A stretch of 10,304 bases of DNA from a virus. The position numbers and the translations under genes are program-made. The stretch lies in the UHGV virus genome UHGV-1714029. One strand, 5' to 3'. The stretch's first letter is position 1. Each line of letters begins with the position of its first letter. Positions 3,062 to 8,648 of this stretch are shown here, one piece after another. Below the pieces are notes generated by a model. It ran no database searches, was not told where the DNA came from, and saw only the letters and a list, made by a program, of their open reading frames with translations.

Positions 3062-4084
3062 TTACTCGAATTCTGGACGCATATCGTTAAGCGTCATCAT
3101 GAATTTTTGGTGATATTCATCACCGAGCTTGTCAGCCATGGTGTTAATTTCATTTTCAGCGCGCTTGAACATCGTTTTTGCATCTTCAGCAGATGGATCC
3201 AGGCTATTAAGTATCGCGATGATATATTCTCGAGCTTCTTCTCGTTCTGAATCTGAAATTGGCGATAGGTGTTGACGCTCATCGTCAACTACGGAATATT
3301 CACCAGTGATAACAGCTGCGTTATCTTGGCTAAGTCCAGCTTCAGCGCGCTCATCCATAACAACAGCCTTCTGCATTTCAATAGAAACAGGAAGATATTT
3401 GAACAGTCGGCGAATTACTGTTTTTTTAGCCATCTCATCGAAGTGATCAACCCATGGGCCACTGCTACCGGCTTTGCTCAGTGCACGAACTTTCTCAACG
3501 TCTGCCCGGCTCATAACTTCAAATTGGACACCGCCATCTTTCAGTCGGGCAACGGCGTAAACGTGCGTTAGTTCTCCGCGGTCACCTGTTTCGCAAGGTA
3601 AATGCTCGAGCGTTTCTTCCAGGCCGTATGAGTAGCTGAATTTGTCGTTTGTATGTACGGTACGAGCCGAGATGCTCAGGATCTGCCCTGAGCGGCGGGC
3701 AAGGTCAATCATTCCGCGATAGCCGATAATCAGCTGTGCTTCTGTAGATACGGTTTCCCATCTTCCATTTACTTTCTGGCGTTTGTCGAACGGTATCAGG
3801 TAAGCGTGTCCAAGAGCTCCGCCTGGTTCAAGACCCAATTGGGCACATTGCATAATTGCCCCCAGGAAGCTGGCTTGGTCGCATGATGCAAGTTTTGGAA
3901 CCTTTCGGATCTCTGTGGTTGCTATGCGCGCCAGACGGTCTGCTGTCATGTGCTTTGGAAGTGCCAAAGCCATCTGAGCTTTAATTTTTGGGTCTGCCAG
4001 AAGTCCGGCCAGAGTTGTTGGTTTCTCATTATGATGTGCAACTTGGTTACCGGTAGCCGCTGCCTTAAGTGCATTGATAGACAT
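3062..4084 (-). CDS. recT: RecT family single-strand annealing recombinase
   Basis: 340 aa. Strong resemblance to RecT across the core (IATTEIRKVP, GAIMQCAQLGLEPG, GHAYLIPF, IIGYRGMIDLARRSGQ, THVYAVARLKDGG, EMAKKTVIRRLFKYLPVSIE). Strong SD AAGGAG before ATG 4084. Confidence 0.92.
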   Translation of the reverse strand: MSINALKAAATGNQVAHHNEKPTTLAGLLADPKIKAQMALALPKHMTADRLARIATTEIRKVPKLASCDQASFLGAIMQCAQLGLEPGGALGHAYLIPFDKRQKVNGRWETVSTEAQLIIGYRGMIDLARRSGQILSISARTVHTNDKFSYSYGLEETLEHLPCETGDRGELTHVYAVARLKDGGVQFEVMSRADVEKVRALSKAGSSGPWVDHFDEMAKKTVIRRLFKYLPVSIEMQKAVVMDERAEAGLSQDNAAVITGEYSVVDDERQHLSPISDSEREEAREYIIAILNSLDPSAEDAKTMFKRAENEINTMADKLGDEYHQKFMMTLNDMRPEFE

Positions 4085-4093
4085 TTTTTCTCC

Positions 4094-4993
4094 TTACTTC
4101 ATTCTGAAGACGCGTTGTGTCGTTGTTGTTTTGAATTTTTCGAATAACTCAGGGTGTACTGACTGGAATAGCTTCTGGTCGAATCTGTTGCTGATCTGAG
4201 ATTTCCATGTGCAGAGCGGCTTTCCGTCCAGGGTCAGGACTGAATGCTCTTGCATGTACATCTTCAGCTTCTCTTCTGATATAGCTATTTCTTCTTCCAG
4301 TGATTTTCTGCGTGACTTCATGTCTCGTAGATCGTTGAATAGTGCGAGTGCCTTTCCGTCAGCCTCGATACTTGTCCCGGCATCTTTCTCAAACATCAGC
4401 GATACATCGCTTACGCTGGTAGCTTCCGGCGGGTTAAGATTTTTCACTCGGTCCCAGAAAGCGATTTCTTTTTCTAAGATCGCCTGGATAGTTTCTTCAT
4501 CACGCTCAACCCGATAGATTCGGAAGTCGTCGCCACCGATAAGCACACCGAAAACGCATACCTGTTTGTTTGTAACCATCAACCCATGCATGGCCTGGGC
4601 CGTGTAATGCACAGGAATTGCATCTGTCTGGATTTCTCCCCATTCTTTGGCTTTGAACGGGCTAACTGTTTTGATCTCAATGTTCTCTCCTGACGCTGCT
4701 TCTGCATCGATCTCAGCTGCAATAAAATCGTAATCACGGTGGATATAGCGGTTTCCGCGATGAACGATTTCCATCCCTGTTTCCTCAGAAAGCAGGTCTA
4801 TTACGTATGGCTCCATACGCTGGCCACGCGTGAAAACTTTCTGCTTGCTTGGGTCTACTGGTTTGACACGTGGCTGGACCTTATCCAGATAAACCTCAAG
4901 CGGGGTGCGCCATGGGCTAATTCCAAGAATCCCTGCAACATCGCTTCCTCCGATGTATTTTCTTCTATCCATGATTCCAGCGTTCCGCATCAT
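4094..4993 (-). CDS. YqaJ-like (lambda Exo / RecE-type) recombination exonuclease, partner of RecT
   Basis: N-terminal YIGGSDVAGILGISPWRTPLEVY is the YqaJ signature. PD-(D/E)xK-like residues in DFIAAEIDAE...IEIKTV. ATG 4993 overlaps the upstream gene stop (ATGA); an alternative ATG lies 7 codons in. Confidence 0.85.
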   Translation of the reverse strand: MMRNAGIMDRRKYIGGSDVAGILGISPWRTPLEVYLDKVQPRVKPVDPSKQKVFTRGQRMEPYVIDLLSEETGMEIVHRGNRYIHRDYDFIAAEIDAEAASGENIEIKTVSPFKAKEWGEIQTDAIPVHYTAQAMHGLMVTNKQVCVFGVLIGGDDFRIYRVERDEETIQAILEKEIAFWDRVKNLNPPEATSVSDVSLMFEKDAGTSIEADGKALALFNDLRDMKSRRKSLEEEIAISEEKLKMYMQEHSVLTLDGKPLCTWKSQISNRFDQKLFQSVHPELFEKFKTTTTQRVFRMK

Positions 4994-5289
4994 GCCGCGT
5001 CCCTCTGCCCATCAATCCGATCCGCCAGATCCCAGCGGGCGATAATTGCCATTGCCTCGCGCCGGTAGGCATCCATTAGTTCTTCGAACTCAGGGCTGTC
5101 TTTAGCGGCCTCCAGTACTTCCTGGCGAACGCCTTTGCCTGTTACAACGTCGAAAGTTGAGGCCAGTTGATGAAGCCGGATACTCTCAATCAGTTCAACT
5201 TGTCGGTCATATAGCTGTTCTGACAGGCAGTAGTCCTTGTCGAATGCCAGCATGATTTTTTGAAGATTTTTCTGCTGATTAACGTTCAT
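4990..5289 (-). CDS. Small protein in the Gam/RacC position (possible host-nuclease inhibitor)
   Basis: 99 aa starting MNVNQQKNL at ATG 5289, 6 nt after a GGGAGGG SD. Sits directly upstream of exo-recT as gam does in lambda. C-terminal EFEELMDAYRREAMAIIARW weakly resembles the lambda Gam C-terminus, by recollection only. Confidence 0.6.
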   Translation of the reverse strand: MNVNQQKNLQKIMLAFDKDYCLSEQLYDRQVELIESIRLHQLASTFDVVTGKGVRQEVLEAAKDSPEFEELMDAYRREAMAIIARWDLADRIDGQRDAA

Positions 5290-5597: not shown

Positions 5598-6182
5598 TTA
5601 TTGTTTATTTTTTTCGTTCTGGTTGATGACAAATTCAATGTAACTTTCGATCTTTGCTTTCTCGGTTTCGGGTAACAATGCGTAGCGCGAGCGGTCATAG
5701 TTGATGGTCGCAGGGTCGTGCGGGTGAATCAGTAATTCATAGCCGTGACGCCCGAATGCGGATGCAACATTCTCCAGGGTGGAAATGGAAACGCTGACTT
5801 CATTGTTTAACAGGCGGCTGATTGTCACCTGGGCGACGCCGGATGCGCGGTGAAGTTTTCCTTGTGTTGAAAGGTCGCGGCTTTCGCTCATCCAGCGTTC
5901 CAGGTTGTGAGCCGCCAGCTGACCAATGTCGCTTGGTCCGACAGGCTGAAAACCCTCCTGAGAAAGCGAGCGATCGATATCAAGCCAGTTACGTGGTTTA
6001 TTGGCGGCAGCTTCAATTTTTCGCGCAACCTGGTCGCCGATAACCTTCTTGCCAAGAGCCCAGCGGTTTACCAGATTTGCCTGAGTTCCAAGTTTTTCTG
6101 CCATCCGCGTCTGAACACCATTGAATTCACGGTCGATCAAGTCGTTGAGATTTTGCCTGCGGACGTCCTGGATACTTTTCAT
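5598..6182 (-). CDS. Repressor-like protein with two HTH (XRE/Cro-C1 type) domains and no S24 peptidase domain
   Basis: 194 aa. HTH 1 around TRMAEKLGTQANLVNRWALGKKVIGDQVARKIEAA; HTH 2 around ASGVAQVTISRLLNNEVSVSISTLENVASAFG. No Ala-Gly cleavage site or Ser/Lys dyad region. Divergent from a Cro-like gene across an operator-rich spacer. Confidence 0.7.
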   Translation of the reverse strand: MKSIQDVRRQNLNDLIDREFNGVQTRMAEKLGTQANLVNRWALGKKVIGDQVARKIEAAANKPRNWLDIDRSLSQEGFQPVGPSDIGQLAAHNLERWMSESRDLSTQGKLHRASGVAQVTISRLLNNEVSVSISTLENVASAFGRHGYELLIHPHDPATINYDRSRYALLPETEKAKIESYIEFVINQNEKNKQ

Positions 6183-6933: not shown

Positions 6934-7749
6934 ATGAGCAGACATGCAACAGATTGGGCCTGGGAGACAGATCCAGGTAGCTCGTCATTAAAGCTCATAC
7001 TGCTCTCGATGGCTGACAGAGCCGATGAATATAACCTCTGCTACCCCAGCATAGAACGCCTCGTTAAAGACACTTGCCTGAATAAAAAAACCGTGCAGGC
7101 CGGGCTTATATCGCTCATGAAAATGGGTCTTATTTCAGATACCGGAGAGAGAAAGGGGGCGACGAAAAGAGTACGGGTTTTCTCTCTTAATATAACCAAA
7201 AACGGGAACATTAAAGGCGACCGGGAGGGGGGTAATGAACCCGAAAACGGTAATGAACCCGAAAACGGGAATATACCCAAAAACGGGATGTTGAATGATC
7301 CCAAAAACGGGATGTTGAATGATCCCAAAAACGGGATCCAGAACCAGTCATATAACCAGTCATTTAACCAAGAGAGGGAGAGCAGGACAAAAAACGGGGA
7401 TTCTGTGCATCATGACCCCGGCGCAAACAACGCCGTGATGAATAACTTTGTTCCTCCTGGTGGGCCAGGGCAATTAGGCAAATTTGTCATGCATGAACAA
7501 TGGCAACCATCAGATGACTTTCTTCGGAAAAGCTCATTGCAGGGGATCTACCTGGACAGTCTGCCAACGGCACAGGAACTTGCAGAGTTCAGAATTTACT
7601 GGATGGCTGAGGGTAAGGCATACCATCAGGCACAGTGGGAGCAGAAGCTGGCAAGGCGGCTGCAGATTAGCAGACAGAAGCAATCAACATTATCTGATAA
7701 CAACGTTCCGCACTGGAACAGCCCTGAAGCATGGGAGGATTTCTTGTGA
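6934..7749 (+). CDS. Replication initiator, lambda O-like (N-terminal HTH domain, iteron-encoded low-complexity linker)
   Basis: N-terminus DWAWETDPGSSSLKLILLSMADRADEYNLCYPSIERLVKDTCLNKKTVQAGLISLMKMGLI is a replication-protein HTH. Middle NGNEPENGNEPENGNIPKNGMLNDPKNGMLNDPKNG is encoded by tandem DNA iterons. TGA stop overlaps the P-like GTG. Confidence 0.8.
   Translation: MSRHATDWAWETDPGSSSLKLILLSMADRADEYNLCYPSIERLVKDTCLNKKTVQAGLISLMKMGLISDTGERKGATKRVRVFSLNITKNGNIKGDREGGNEPENGNEPENGNIPKNGMLNDPKNGMLNDPKNGIQNQSYNQSFNQERESRTKNGDSVHHDPGANNAVMNNFVPPGGPGQLGKFVMHEQWQPSDDFLRKSSLQGIYLDSLPTAQELAEFRIYWMAEGKAYHQAQWEQKLARRLQISRQKQSTLSDNNVPHWNSPEAWEDFL
7196..7399. repeat. Iteron array / probable origin of replication embedded in the O-like gene
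   Basis: Seven copies of CC(C)-R-AAAACGGG: a tandem block 7231-7332 with unit lengths 18, 18, 18, 24, 24 bp, plus outliers at 7196-7206 and 7389-7399. Each has short dyad symmetry (CCCG-AAAA-CGGG), like the lambda ori iterons. Confidence 0.7.
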
Positions 7750-8531
7750 ACAACGTTTTTACCGCGATACAAAACCGTGACGGAGAAGCCCTTTCTCGCA
7801 TGTCAGGTTATGAGCATCAGTACACCAACAATGACAACGTGGTGAACATGTCAGCAGAGAGGCTTGTTGATGCCCTTTTCAAACAGCTGAAACAACTGTT
7901 TCCGGCGGCAGTGGTAACCAACCTGAAGACGCCAGAGCAGGAAGTTGCTGCAAAACAGCAGTGGATTGCTGCGTTTGCCGAAGGGGGGATCCGAACCCGT
8001 GAACAGGTTTCTGCTGGTATGCGCCACGCCCGCGCCAGTGAATCTCCGTTCTGGCCGTCGCCAGGGCAATTCATCAAGTGGTGTAAAGACAGCAAGATGG
8101 TTCTTGGCGTCACCATTGACGATGTGATGGCGGAGTTTCACCGGTACAGCAAGGAAAAAAGTTTATATCCTGGTGGTCCCGAAAGATTCCCGTGGCGACA
8201 TCCGGTTATGTACTGGGTCGTATGTGATACCCGCCGTGCAATGTATCAGCGCCAGCTTAGCGAGATTGAGGTTGAGAAACACGCGCGCAGGCTGCTCGAT
8301 GATTGGGCGAAAAAGGTGGCTTCCGGACAGCAGATACCCGATCCGGTGATCAGCATACAGGCAAAGCCAGAACCCATGAGTACGCCTCCGGACACAGGGA
8401 GAGACGTTTACCATCCACCAGGGCGAAGTTTCGGGTGCATGCCTAACGCCGCCACCCTTGGGGGAATAACACCGGCGCAGTGGCTGATGGAGGAATACAG
8501 GCGGGGAAAGGCGTCAGGATTTATCAAGTAA
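7746..8531 (+). CDS. Replication protein P-like (DnaB helicase loader, lambda P family)
   Basis: Conserved core AAKQQWIAAFAEGGIRTREQVSAGMRHARASESPFWPSPGQFIKWC resembles lambda P. GTG 7746 overlaps the O-like stop (GTGA) 6 nt after SD GGGAGGA; an in-frame ATG at 7731 is the alternative start. Confidence 0.85.
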   Translation: MNNVFTAIQNRDGEALSRMSGYEHQYTNNDNVVNMSAERLVDALFKQLKQLFPAAVVTNLKTPEQEVAAKQQWIAAFAEGGIRTREQVSAGMRHARASESPFWPSPGQFIKWCKDSKMVLGVTIDDVMAEFHRYSKEKSLYPGGPERFPWRHPVMYWVVCDTRRAMYQRQLSEIEVEKHARRLLDDWAKKVASGQQIPDPVISIQAKPEPMSTPPDTGRDVYHPPGRSFGCMPNAATLGGITPAQWLMEEYRRGKASGFIK

Positions 8532-8536
8532 TACCA

Positions 8537-8557
8537 GCGCGATAGCGCATTTTTTTA
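8537..8557 (+). terminator. Weak intrinsic terminator candidate after the P-like gene
   Basis: GCGC-GATA-GCGC, a 4-bp GC stem, followed by A and seven T residues (8549-8556). The stem is short, so this is tentative. Confidence 0.3.
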
Positions 8558-8568
8558 CGTCTCGATAA

Positions 8569-8645
8569 TTACCTTCGAGGTAATAAAATATTCTAAAATC
8601 TATTGATTTCGTGTCTTATGTGGTTTTTAATTACCTAAGGGGTAA
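8569..8645. promoter_or_regulatory. Promoter/operator region upstream of the DUF1064 gene with two perfect operator palindromes
   Basis: TTACC-ttcga-GGTAA at 8569-8583 and TTACC-taagg-GGTAA at 8631-8645; TTGATT at 8604-8609 is a possible -35. The second site overlaps the RBS of the gene starting at 8649. Confidence 0.5.
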
Positions 8646-8648
8646 ATC

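Follow-up and report, generated by a model that had tools for sequence, protein, structure and literature searches.

The 10,304-nucleotide stretch analysed here, from UHGV virus genome UHGV-1714029 (hereafter the window), carries at 6934-7749 the gene of a phage replication initiator whose middle part consists of copies of a short DNA element, CCC-R-AAAACGG. We propose that the array at 7189-7336 represents the initiator-bound iterons of a prophage replication origin lying inside the initiator's own gene, a reading to which we give a probability of about 0.8 on the comparative evidence presented below. The repeats exist as discrete sites, the constraint on them acts on the DNA and does not depend on reading frame, the array is linked to the N-terminal domain of the initiator, and its position is equivalent to that of the iterons of phage lambda.

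An array of direct repeats within the initiator gene

The window, a phiV10-like Escherichia coli prophage, shares 96-98% identity with the early regions of two Uetakevirus phages, phiV10 and phiv142-3. Its initiator gene, likewise 96-98% identical in DNA to the gene for a 'replication initiation protein' in these two phages, encodes a protein with Pfam matches to HTH_36 at residues 18-67 (E 1.8e-10) and to the DnaT DNA-binding domain at residues 184-251 (E 1.4e-15); the phiV10 RefSeq record uses the same gene name and has no annotated origin. When the Protein Data Bank was searched with phmmer, the C-terminal domain matched the C-terminal single-stranded DNA (ssDNA)-binding domain of E. coli DnaT (E 8e-20; 6aep, 4ou6, 9zbt). 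The features of the gene are as follows (TRF, Tandem Repeats Finder).

6934-7749, + strand: replication initiator gene, 271 residues (open reading frame list), with a winged helix-turn-helix N-domain, a repeat-encoded linker and a DnaT-like C-domain
6934-7194, + strand: part encoding the N-terminal winged helix-turn-helix (HTH_36) domain, the putative iteron-binding domain (Pfam, family profile)
7189-7207, + strand: iteron 1, AATATAACCAAAAACGGGA, one core mismatch (motif search, repeat search); the copy at this place is kept in locus L088
7234-7252, + strand: iteron 2, AATGAACCCGAAAACGGTA, 18-bp unit (TRF, repeat and motif searches)
7252-7270, + strand: iteron 3, AATGAACCCGAAAACGGGA, 18-bp unit (TRF, repeat and motif searches)
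7270-7288, + strand: iteron 4, AATATACCCAAAAACGGGA (TRF, repeat and motif searches)
7294-7312, + strand: iteron 5, AATGATCCCAAAAACGGGA, 24-bp unit with arms ATCCC/GGGAT (TRF, repeat and motif searches)
7318-7336, + strand: iteron 6, AATGATCCCAAAAACGGGA, 24-bp unit (TRF, repeat and motif searches)
7341-7375, + strand: three direct repeats of ~12 bp, GAACCAGTCAT / TAACCAGTCAT / TAACCAAGAGA, directly 3' of iteron 6 (TRF, period 12)
7387-7399, + strand: degenerate seventh copy, ACAAAAAACGGGG, two mismatches and no AA flank
7474-7719, + strand: part encoding the DnaT-like C-terminal domain, residues 181-262 (phmmer against the Protein Data Bank)

The CCC-R-AAAACGG array occupies 7195-7399 and comprises six good copies and one degenerate copy, with 12-mers starting at 7195 (ACCAAAAACGGG), 7240 (CCCGAAAACGGT), 7258 (CCCGAAAACGGG), 7276, 7300 and 7324 (each CCCAAAAACGGG) and 7387 (ACAAAAAACGGG), and thus start-to-start spacings of 45, 18, 18, 24, 24 and 63 bp. 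Tandem Repeats Finder reported a period of 18 at 7231-7286 (3.1 copies, 89% matches), a period of 24 at 7276-7337 (2.6 copies, 100%) and a period of 12 at 7342-7370 (2.4 copies), and a second repeat search of the window returned the same repeat families. These results bear out the tandem 18- and 24-bp periodicity that an earlier model-made reading of the letters (the sequence-only reading) had described and had proposed to check with such a program. Allowing at most one mismatch, CCCRAAAACGG occurs six times in the window, always on the + strand and between 7195 and 7334, where 0.38 occurrences are expected, and none of 200 shuffles reached six; in the complete 39.3-kb relative phiv142-3 the motif is found solely in the array (six matches versus 1.18 expected). 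All copies in the window are in frame with 6934-7749, CCC AAA AAC GGG being read as P-K-N-G and the set as a whole as P-[KE]-N-G, which yields the linker peptide NITKNGNIKGDREGGNEPENGNEPENGNIPKNGMLNDPKNGMLNDPKNGIQNQSYNQSFNQ, rich in Asn, Pro and Gly, just as the sequence-only reading had it, and also in Lys. The 24-bp units have 5-bp inverted arms, ATCCC-AAAAAC-GGGAT. Where seven copies had been counted in that reading, six stand at no more than one mismatch and the seventh, at 7387, does not: because it has two mismatches, misses the conserved flank and goes undetected at up to two mismatches in many close relatives, it is doubtful as a functional site.

The repeats are constrained as DNA in every reading frame

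Besides the window, the comparative analysis took in 80 species-representative genomes and four phages (of Edwardsiella, Vibrio, Acinetobacter and E. coli), in all 85 loci with a homologous N-domain, with N-domain identities to that of the window of 40-100% and hosts ranging from Escherichia to Acinetobacter, Vibrio, Polaromonas and Erythrobacter. Five homologues in which the open reading frame of the N-domain ends inside the array (L104, L118, L124, L145 and L165) were considered as possible cases of an array in non-coding DNA; they look like frameshifts, truncations or pseudogenes and were set aside as such cases. At up to two mismatches, CCCAAAAACGGG was found 203 times in the 350 bp that follow the N-domain (6.9 per kb) versus 38 times in the remaining ~396 kb (0.096 per kb), an enrichment of ~72-fold directly after the domain, and 194 of the 203 copies (96%) lie on the coding strand, with 9 on the opposite one. 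The coding-strand copies are distributed over three reading frames, giving PKNG (126 copies), xQKRx (42) or xPKTx (26). Frames are even mixed within single genes, as in L105, L089 and L106 (the last with 11 copies), and at the peptide level at least two such 'frames' are present in 71 of 125 cluster representatives.

Within the 73 in-frame P[KE]NG peptides, proline is encoded by CCC in every case, versus 15% elsewhere in the same genes, while lysine is AAA in 53/53 (65% elsewhere), glutamate GAA in 20/20 (61%) and asparagine AAC in 70/73 (54%). Positions outside the search pattern are also retained in every frame, with A at -5 in 94% and A at -4 in 92% of copies, which extends the site to ~19 bp, AAyAnnCCCAAAAACGGkA; for the iterons we give the consensus AAyAnnCCC(A/G)AAAACGGkA. 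The enrichment and strand polarity, the use of three frames, the frozen synonymous sites and the conserved flanks together argue for a constraint on the DNA that is independent of frame. A repeat maintained at the peptide level would keep to one frame and leave synonymous positions free to vary, whereas here the copies are split 126/42/26 among the frames and synonymous positions are held constant against codon usage; on this comparison, neither a peptide-level repeat nor a neutral minisatellite can explain the enrichment, the frames, the synonymous sites and the flanks. Programmed frameshifting on the runs of A was considered and rejected, as the runs have five A's with no in-frame X XXY YYZ heptamer and the multi-frame pattern arises between genes and not within a transcript.

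The array follows the N-terminal domain of the initiator

The array accompanies the HTH_36 N-domain across a variety of C-terminal domains, which are DnaT-like in the window and in the PPompW prophage, lambda-O-like in Edwardsiella phage GF-2, and of other kinds in Vibrio phage H20 and in Acinetobacter phage AP22, where a DnaB-type helicase gene follows. Conversely, the array is absent in SPN1S, Tyrion and TL-2011b, in which the same DnaT-like C-domain (46-50% identical) is joined to unrelated N-domains. A looser form of the site, AA-N4-NCC-N6-GG, occurs at 11.8 per kb in the linkers versus 0.19 per kb elsewhere, and its centre differs with the N-domain: in loci without an N-domain insert (57) the central hexamer reads AAAAAC or GAAAAC, whereas 28 loci of the Acinetobacter type, in which the N-domain carries an insert of 7 residues, show AACAAC, AACAAT or AACGTT there. 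Family-wide, hardly any variation is seen in DT-x-L-[ND]-x-KT-[VI], a putative recognition stretch of the protein, in parallel with the near-invariant iteron core. Because the array tracks the N-domain and not the C-domain, and because the iteron centre covaries with the N-domain subtype, we infer as the simplest reading that the N-domain recognises the repeats.

The initiator gene of TL-2011b (L171) has other repeats: a 28-nt sequence with an internal palindrome (GTAACGCTGGCAGCGTTAC AAAAGGAGT) stands at both 1130-1157 and 1339-1366, at a distance of 209 nt, and the pair may serve this replicon as origin sites within a gene.

The cassette lies where lambda has the left part of its origin

The initiator of Edwardsiella phage GF-2 (L004, 2001-2843), a natural hybrid of the present system and that of lambda, allows the position of the array to be compared directly with that of a known origin. 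The last 144 residues of this protein are 62% identical to residues 156-299 of lambda O (E 2e-67) and a lambda P gene is next, while the HTH_36 domain, CCCAAAA(AC/TT)GGG iterons and 12-mers replace the N-domain of lambda, its four iterons and its AT-rich tract. The GF-2 iterons comprise three perfect 16-bp palindromes, ATCCCAAAATTGGGAT. Within the part that matches lambda O, a stretch of GF-2 DNA is identical at 22 of 24 positions to the sequence around the lambda EcoRI site, just right of the AT-rich tract, which we take to be the lambda ori palindrome. This pattern of replacement makes the cassette positionally equivalent to the left part of ori-lambda.

Three database records deposited as plasmids provide circumstantial support for the origin reading. 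NZ_CP148379.1 (L174), deposited as a circular plasmid of E. coli and 8,461 bp long, has as its sole evident replication genes a P gene and an initiator gene of the PPompW type in which three iterons are exact. These two genes belong to a prophage early region that also encodes dicA/dicC-like repressors and YdaT; beside it the record encodes an ATP-binding protein, an HNH endonuclease, hokD and rem. It looks like a replicon of the lambda-dv type, or else like a product of excision or assembly. In the other two records, the whole 41-kb phage was deposited as a circular 'plasmid'.

A second repeat set and a proposed mechanism of initiation

Directly after the last iteron, the 12- to 13-bp repeats have the family form GAAYCNNYCAW and recur in most of L088-L167 as well as in L004, L005 and L006; the sequence-only reading had not singled them out as an element of their own. 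Three [GT]AAYC units with a spacing of 11-14 nt were detected in 57/85 loci versus 2/1252 control segments, and across the family they too are read in different frames, as NQS, EPV and ESK. They occupy the position of lambda's AT-rich tract, and in many homologues a run of A follows them. Judged by 30-bp stacking energy, the duplex of the window reaches the 92nd-94th percentile of instability here, which is only moderate. Like the 13-mers in the unwinding elements of plasmids (PMC4081077), the 12-mers at 7341-7375 may serve as an unwinding element or as a second binding element, and this is the weakest step of the model.

We envisage that rightward early transcription would yield the initiator, whose HTH_36 N-domain would bind the six same-facing iterons, 18-24 bp apart, to form a nucleoprotein complex resembling the 'O-some'. 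The adjoining stretch with its three ~12-bp GAAYC repeats would then open, and the DnaT-like C-domain together with the lambda-P-type protein would bring in the host DnaB helicase, replication thus starting at the array. The Asn/Pro/Gly/Lys-rich linker would be a passive translation of the DNA sites, in keeping with sites that fit any frame and whose number varies among relatives.

Alternative explanations

Several observations weigh against this interpretation. The sequences behind the covariation and codon statistics are related to one another, and tandem copies may have been homogenised by recombination, so that the counts are not phylogenetically independent, although the effect sizes are large. 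There is no AT-rich tract of lambda grade beside the array or elsewhere in the gene, the GC fraction over 40 bp never falling below 0.35, and whereas lambda's tract is the instability extreme of its locus, the 12-mer region is not: the least stable 30-mer of the window starts at ~8581, between genes and downstream of P (8532-8648). The initiator has no match to Phage_rep_O (PF04492) at E <= 0.01, which makes the lambda mechanism an analogy with, at most, the support of remote homology. Finally, the small circular record NZ_CP148379.1 could instead be a product of excision or assembly.

The repeats might be genuine initiator sites but serve control, through autoregulation, a transcriptional roadblock in the initiator's own gene or titration/handcuffing, with the true origin elsewhere, for instance near 8581. 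The evidence for DNA constraint and for linkage to the N-domain fits this equally well, the array has no strong AT-rich neighbour while the least stable DNA of the window lies at ~8581, and iterons of plasmids serve both initiation and control (PMC3401445). We nevertheless regard it as unlikely, since the GF-2 cassette stands in for precisely that part of lambda which contains the origin's iterons and AT-rich tract, the last iteron is followed by another conserved set of repeats, of a sort typical of origins, and the motif occurs nowhere else in the 39-kb genome, leaving no second cluster of sites to mark another origin. Less likely again is that the repeats bind some other protein, whether from the host or a different regulator of the phage, and are found within this gene by chance. 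The evidence on the binder is indirect, and phased sites rich in A-tracts could suit a nucleoid protein, but the array tracks the HTH_36 N-domain through varied C-domains, neighbouring genes and hosts of three proteobacterial classes, is lost when the N-domain is exchanged, and changes its centre with the N-domain subtype.

Selection on the protein would make the array a flexible Asn/Pro/Gly-rich linker whose DNA regularity stems from recent tandem duplication and codon preference. The window taken by itself would suit this account, its copies all lying in one frame as a regular (N)-x-P-[KE]-N-G peptide, and copy number shifts by whole codons; it becomes very improbable once homologues are considered, as these read the motif in three frames as unrelated peptides (PKNG, QKR, PKT), hold synonymous positions invariant against codon usage (CCC in 73/73), keep the AA flank in every frame and show strong strand polarity. 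A neutral, slippage-prone minisatellite with no function would account for the 4-9 copies among near-identical prophages, in which both 18-bp and 24-bp units vary. However, the core is kept across genera and classes at 40-60% protein identity, in a fixed place after the N-domain and with ~72-fold enrichment, and neutral repeats would neither persist nor keep their sequence over such distances; of all the accounts weighed here, this is the one we find hardest to credit. The interpretation of the repeats as iterons of an origin, first put forward in the sequence-only reading, is well supported by the comparative evidence.

Neighbouring genes and other features of the window

Two further open reading frames overlap or adjoin the initiator gene.

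7041-7328, - strand: antisense open reading frame of 95 residues, an artefact of the array and not a gene, translated as a repetitive peptide, LGSFNIPFLGSFNIPFLG...
7731-8531, + strand: lambda-P-type helicase-loader gene (Pfam Phage_lambda_P, PF06992, E 1.5e-56)

The antisense frame had been dismissed as an artefact in the sequence-only reading, and we concur: besides the repetitive nature of its product, the open antisense frame over the array varies freely among homologues, from 0 to 388 codons, and looks like a by-product of a stop-free reverse complement. The downstream gene, 'P-like' in that reading, starts at ATG 7731 or, following the phiV10 annotation, at GTG 7746, overlapping the stop codon of the initiator. 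Upstream of the initiator gene, a divergent repressor is encoded on the minus strand (5598-6182) and two small genes point rightward, which gives the region the plan of a lambdoid early-right operon.

Helix-turn-helix regions are present twice in the repressor-like protein, in which residues 21-61 match the YdaS type weakly and residues 106-147 match HTH_3. Two adjacent minus-strand open reading frames, 3062-4084 and 4094-4993 (340 and 299 residues), occupy the position of RecE/RecT in relatives, at which phiV10 has one 1,761-bp fusion gene and phiv142-3 separate RecE-like and RecT genes. The leftward early region also contains an 11-bp tandem repeat at 5252-5280 (ATGATTTTTTG, 2.5 copies). At 8532-8648, promoter-like matches are present on both strands, and a terminator is annotated there in phiV10.

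Scans for promoter- and terminator-like matches around the initiator gene gave numbers at chance level. Two minus-strand 'terminators' at 7284-7327 are probably a by-product of the iteron arms, as adjacent arms (GGGAT..ATCCC) pair into 6-bp hairpins that precede the T-run of the next iteron. An Rfam scan of the window returned no match, and AlphaFold2 run on the initiator sequence by itself gave no usable model (mean predicted local distance difference test score, pLDDT, 37). GC skew is no guide to an origin over 10 kb of a phage region in which transcription dominates.

Distribution, copy-number variation and significance

Among 83 near-identical prophages the array has 4-9 copies, with variation in both the 18-bp and the 24-bp units, and initiator length among relatives is 263-311 residues. 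Of 5,426 complete E. coli genomes, 424 carry the initiator gene. More broadly, the N-domain was detected at E <= 1e-3 in 3,793 cluster representatives among 1.84 billion, and linker peptides were found in 115 of the 125 long representatives among the best 150. A phiV10-like replication module with 95-98% identity is also present near one end of PP488543.1 (phage BP9, 138 kb, Vequintavirus) and PP350014.1 (phage PH444, 115 kb); it is unexpected for phages of those types, and the two records may be chimeric assemblies.

We would tentatively consider, as a possibility that we do not favour at present, that the HTH_36 domain, the CCCAAAAACGG iterons and the three GAAYC 12-mers form a single ancient and portable origin cassette, a distant homologue of the lambda O N-domain plus ori-lambda. 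Such a cassette may have been recombined onto many helicase-recruiting C-domains in prophages of Alpha-, Beta- and Gammaproteobacteria, with the 12-mers, and not an AT-rich tract, as the sequence-specific opening site. As the iteron core and the putative recognition stretch are both near-invariant across genera, co-resident prophages could cross-activate or compete for one another's origins. If so, cross-talk or incompatibility between replicons would be expected among prophages in E. coli, for example phiV10-like, PPompW-like and 'Eru'-type Shiga toxin (Stx) phages with HTH_36 proteins. Replication regions with such proteins have been noted in several types of non-lambdoid Stx phage, and for the Eru phages nothing was known about the proteins that take part in replication (PMC8951638).

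The analysis provides a concrete, testable assignment of an origin and its initiator sites for a module that is annotated only as 'primosomal protein' or 'DnaT-like'. The combination of one motif, three frames and frozen synonymous sites constitutes a clean in silico signature that could be used to find intragenic origins in other phages. While the design repeats the classical one of lambda, the family occurs widely, and the searched literature yielded no experimental study of it. A description of its iterons was not found there either, although an earlier mention in the phiV10 or epsilon15 genome papers is possible.

Comparison with known replication systems

The mechanism of initiation at ori-lambda is established (PMC7466680), and the parallel to it drawn in the sequence-only reading holds at the level of build. 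The iterons annotated inside the O gene in NC_001416 (ATCCCTCAAAACGAGGGA, ATCCCCTAAAACGAGGGA, ATCCCTCAAATTGGGGGA and ATCCCTCAAAACAGGGGG) are 20-24 bp apart, share the build ATCCC..AAAAC..GGGA and are read in different frames, as IPQNEG, SPKTRD, SLKLGD and YPSKQG. In both systems the iterons occupy the central part of the initiator gene, flanked by the coding regions of an N-terminal domain for DNA binding and a C-terminal one for recruitment, as sites of ~18-19 bp with short inverted arms and an A-rich asymmetric centre (ATCCCTCAAAACGAGGGA in lambda, AATGATCCCAAAAACGGGA here), in one orientation, at a spacing of ~18-24 bp and translated in whichever frame, with a gene of the lambda P family directly downstream. 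Where an origin of the lambda type would have at least four same-oriented intragenic iterons of ~18-19 bp, some two helical turns apart, between the two domains, the window has six (7189-7336, 18/24-bp spacing) together with the P-family partner, but not the adjoining AT-rich tract. The arms here are 3 bp closer, there are six or seven sites versus the four of lambda, and in place of a 40-bp AT-rich tract and a 28-bp palindrome there are three ~12-bp GAAYC repeats.

The two initiators also differ in family, as the N-domain here is HTH_36 and not Phage_rep_O and the C-domain is DnaT-like, unlike that of lambda O; the designation 'O-like' in the sequence-only reading thus applies to domain architecture and not to family membership. 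Among 38 aligned family members, HTH_36 was matched in 38/38 and Phage_rep_O in 5/38, weakly (best E 0.0074), and BLASTP of the window protein against lambda O gave no pairwise similarity (E 0.075). Alignment of the winged helix-turn-helix cores with hhalign paired residues 17-86 of the window protein with residues 47-115 of lambda O over 70 columns, from end to end of the cores (probability 75.6%, E 2.4e-5). This profile alignment and the similar iterons suggest that the HTH_36 and lambda O cassettes, each an N-domain plus ori, may be distant relatives.

The Stx phages 933W and P27 have six iterons and an O protein that is longer by 13 residues (PMC7466680). As in those phages, extra iterons lengthen the initiator here, over the ranges of copy number and protein length given above. 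The Stx phage proteins differ in being true members of the lambda O family with experimentally footprinted iterons.

In iteron plasmids such as RK2 (TrfA) and pPS10 (RepA), directly repeated initiator sites adjoin short ~13-bp repeats, much as the iterons adjoin the 12-mers here, and the Rep proteins bind these unwinding-element repeats as single strands (PMC4081077, PMC4980987). By analogy, the three 12-mers at 7341-7375 could have the role of the plasmid ~13-bp repeats. The plasmid iterons, however, lie outside the rep gene and not within it, and their initiators are of the Rep_3/WH1-WH2 type, for which the window protein and the aligned family members gave no Rep_3-type Pfam match; DnaA boxes and a clearly AT-rich unwinding element, typical of the plasmids, are not evident here.

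With E. coli DnaT (primosomal protein I), after which many annotations name this gene, the initiator has in common an ssDNA-binding domain formed by a three-helix bundle (structure in PMC4132743), residues 180-264 matching residues 85-169 of DnaT. Only this C-domain is common to the two, the N-terminal half here consisting of the winged helix-turn-helix and the iteron linker and the gene lying in a phage early operon with a P-type loader; the gene is not a DnaT orthologue, and the annotation 'primosomal protein' hides its probable role as an origin-binding initiator. Although it lacks a Phage_rep_O domain and an AT-rich tract, the feature is best filed as an iteron origin embedded in a phage initiator gene, following the classical lambda design.

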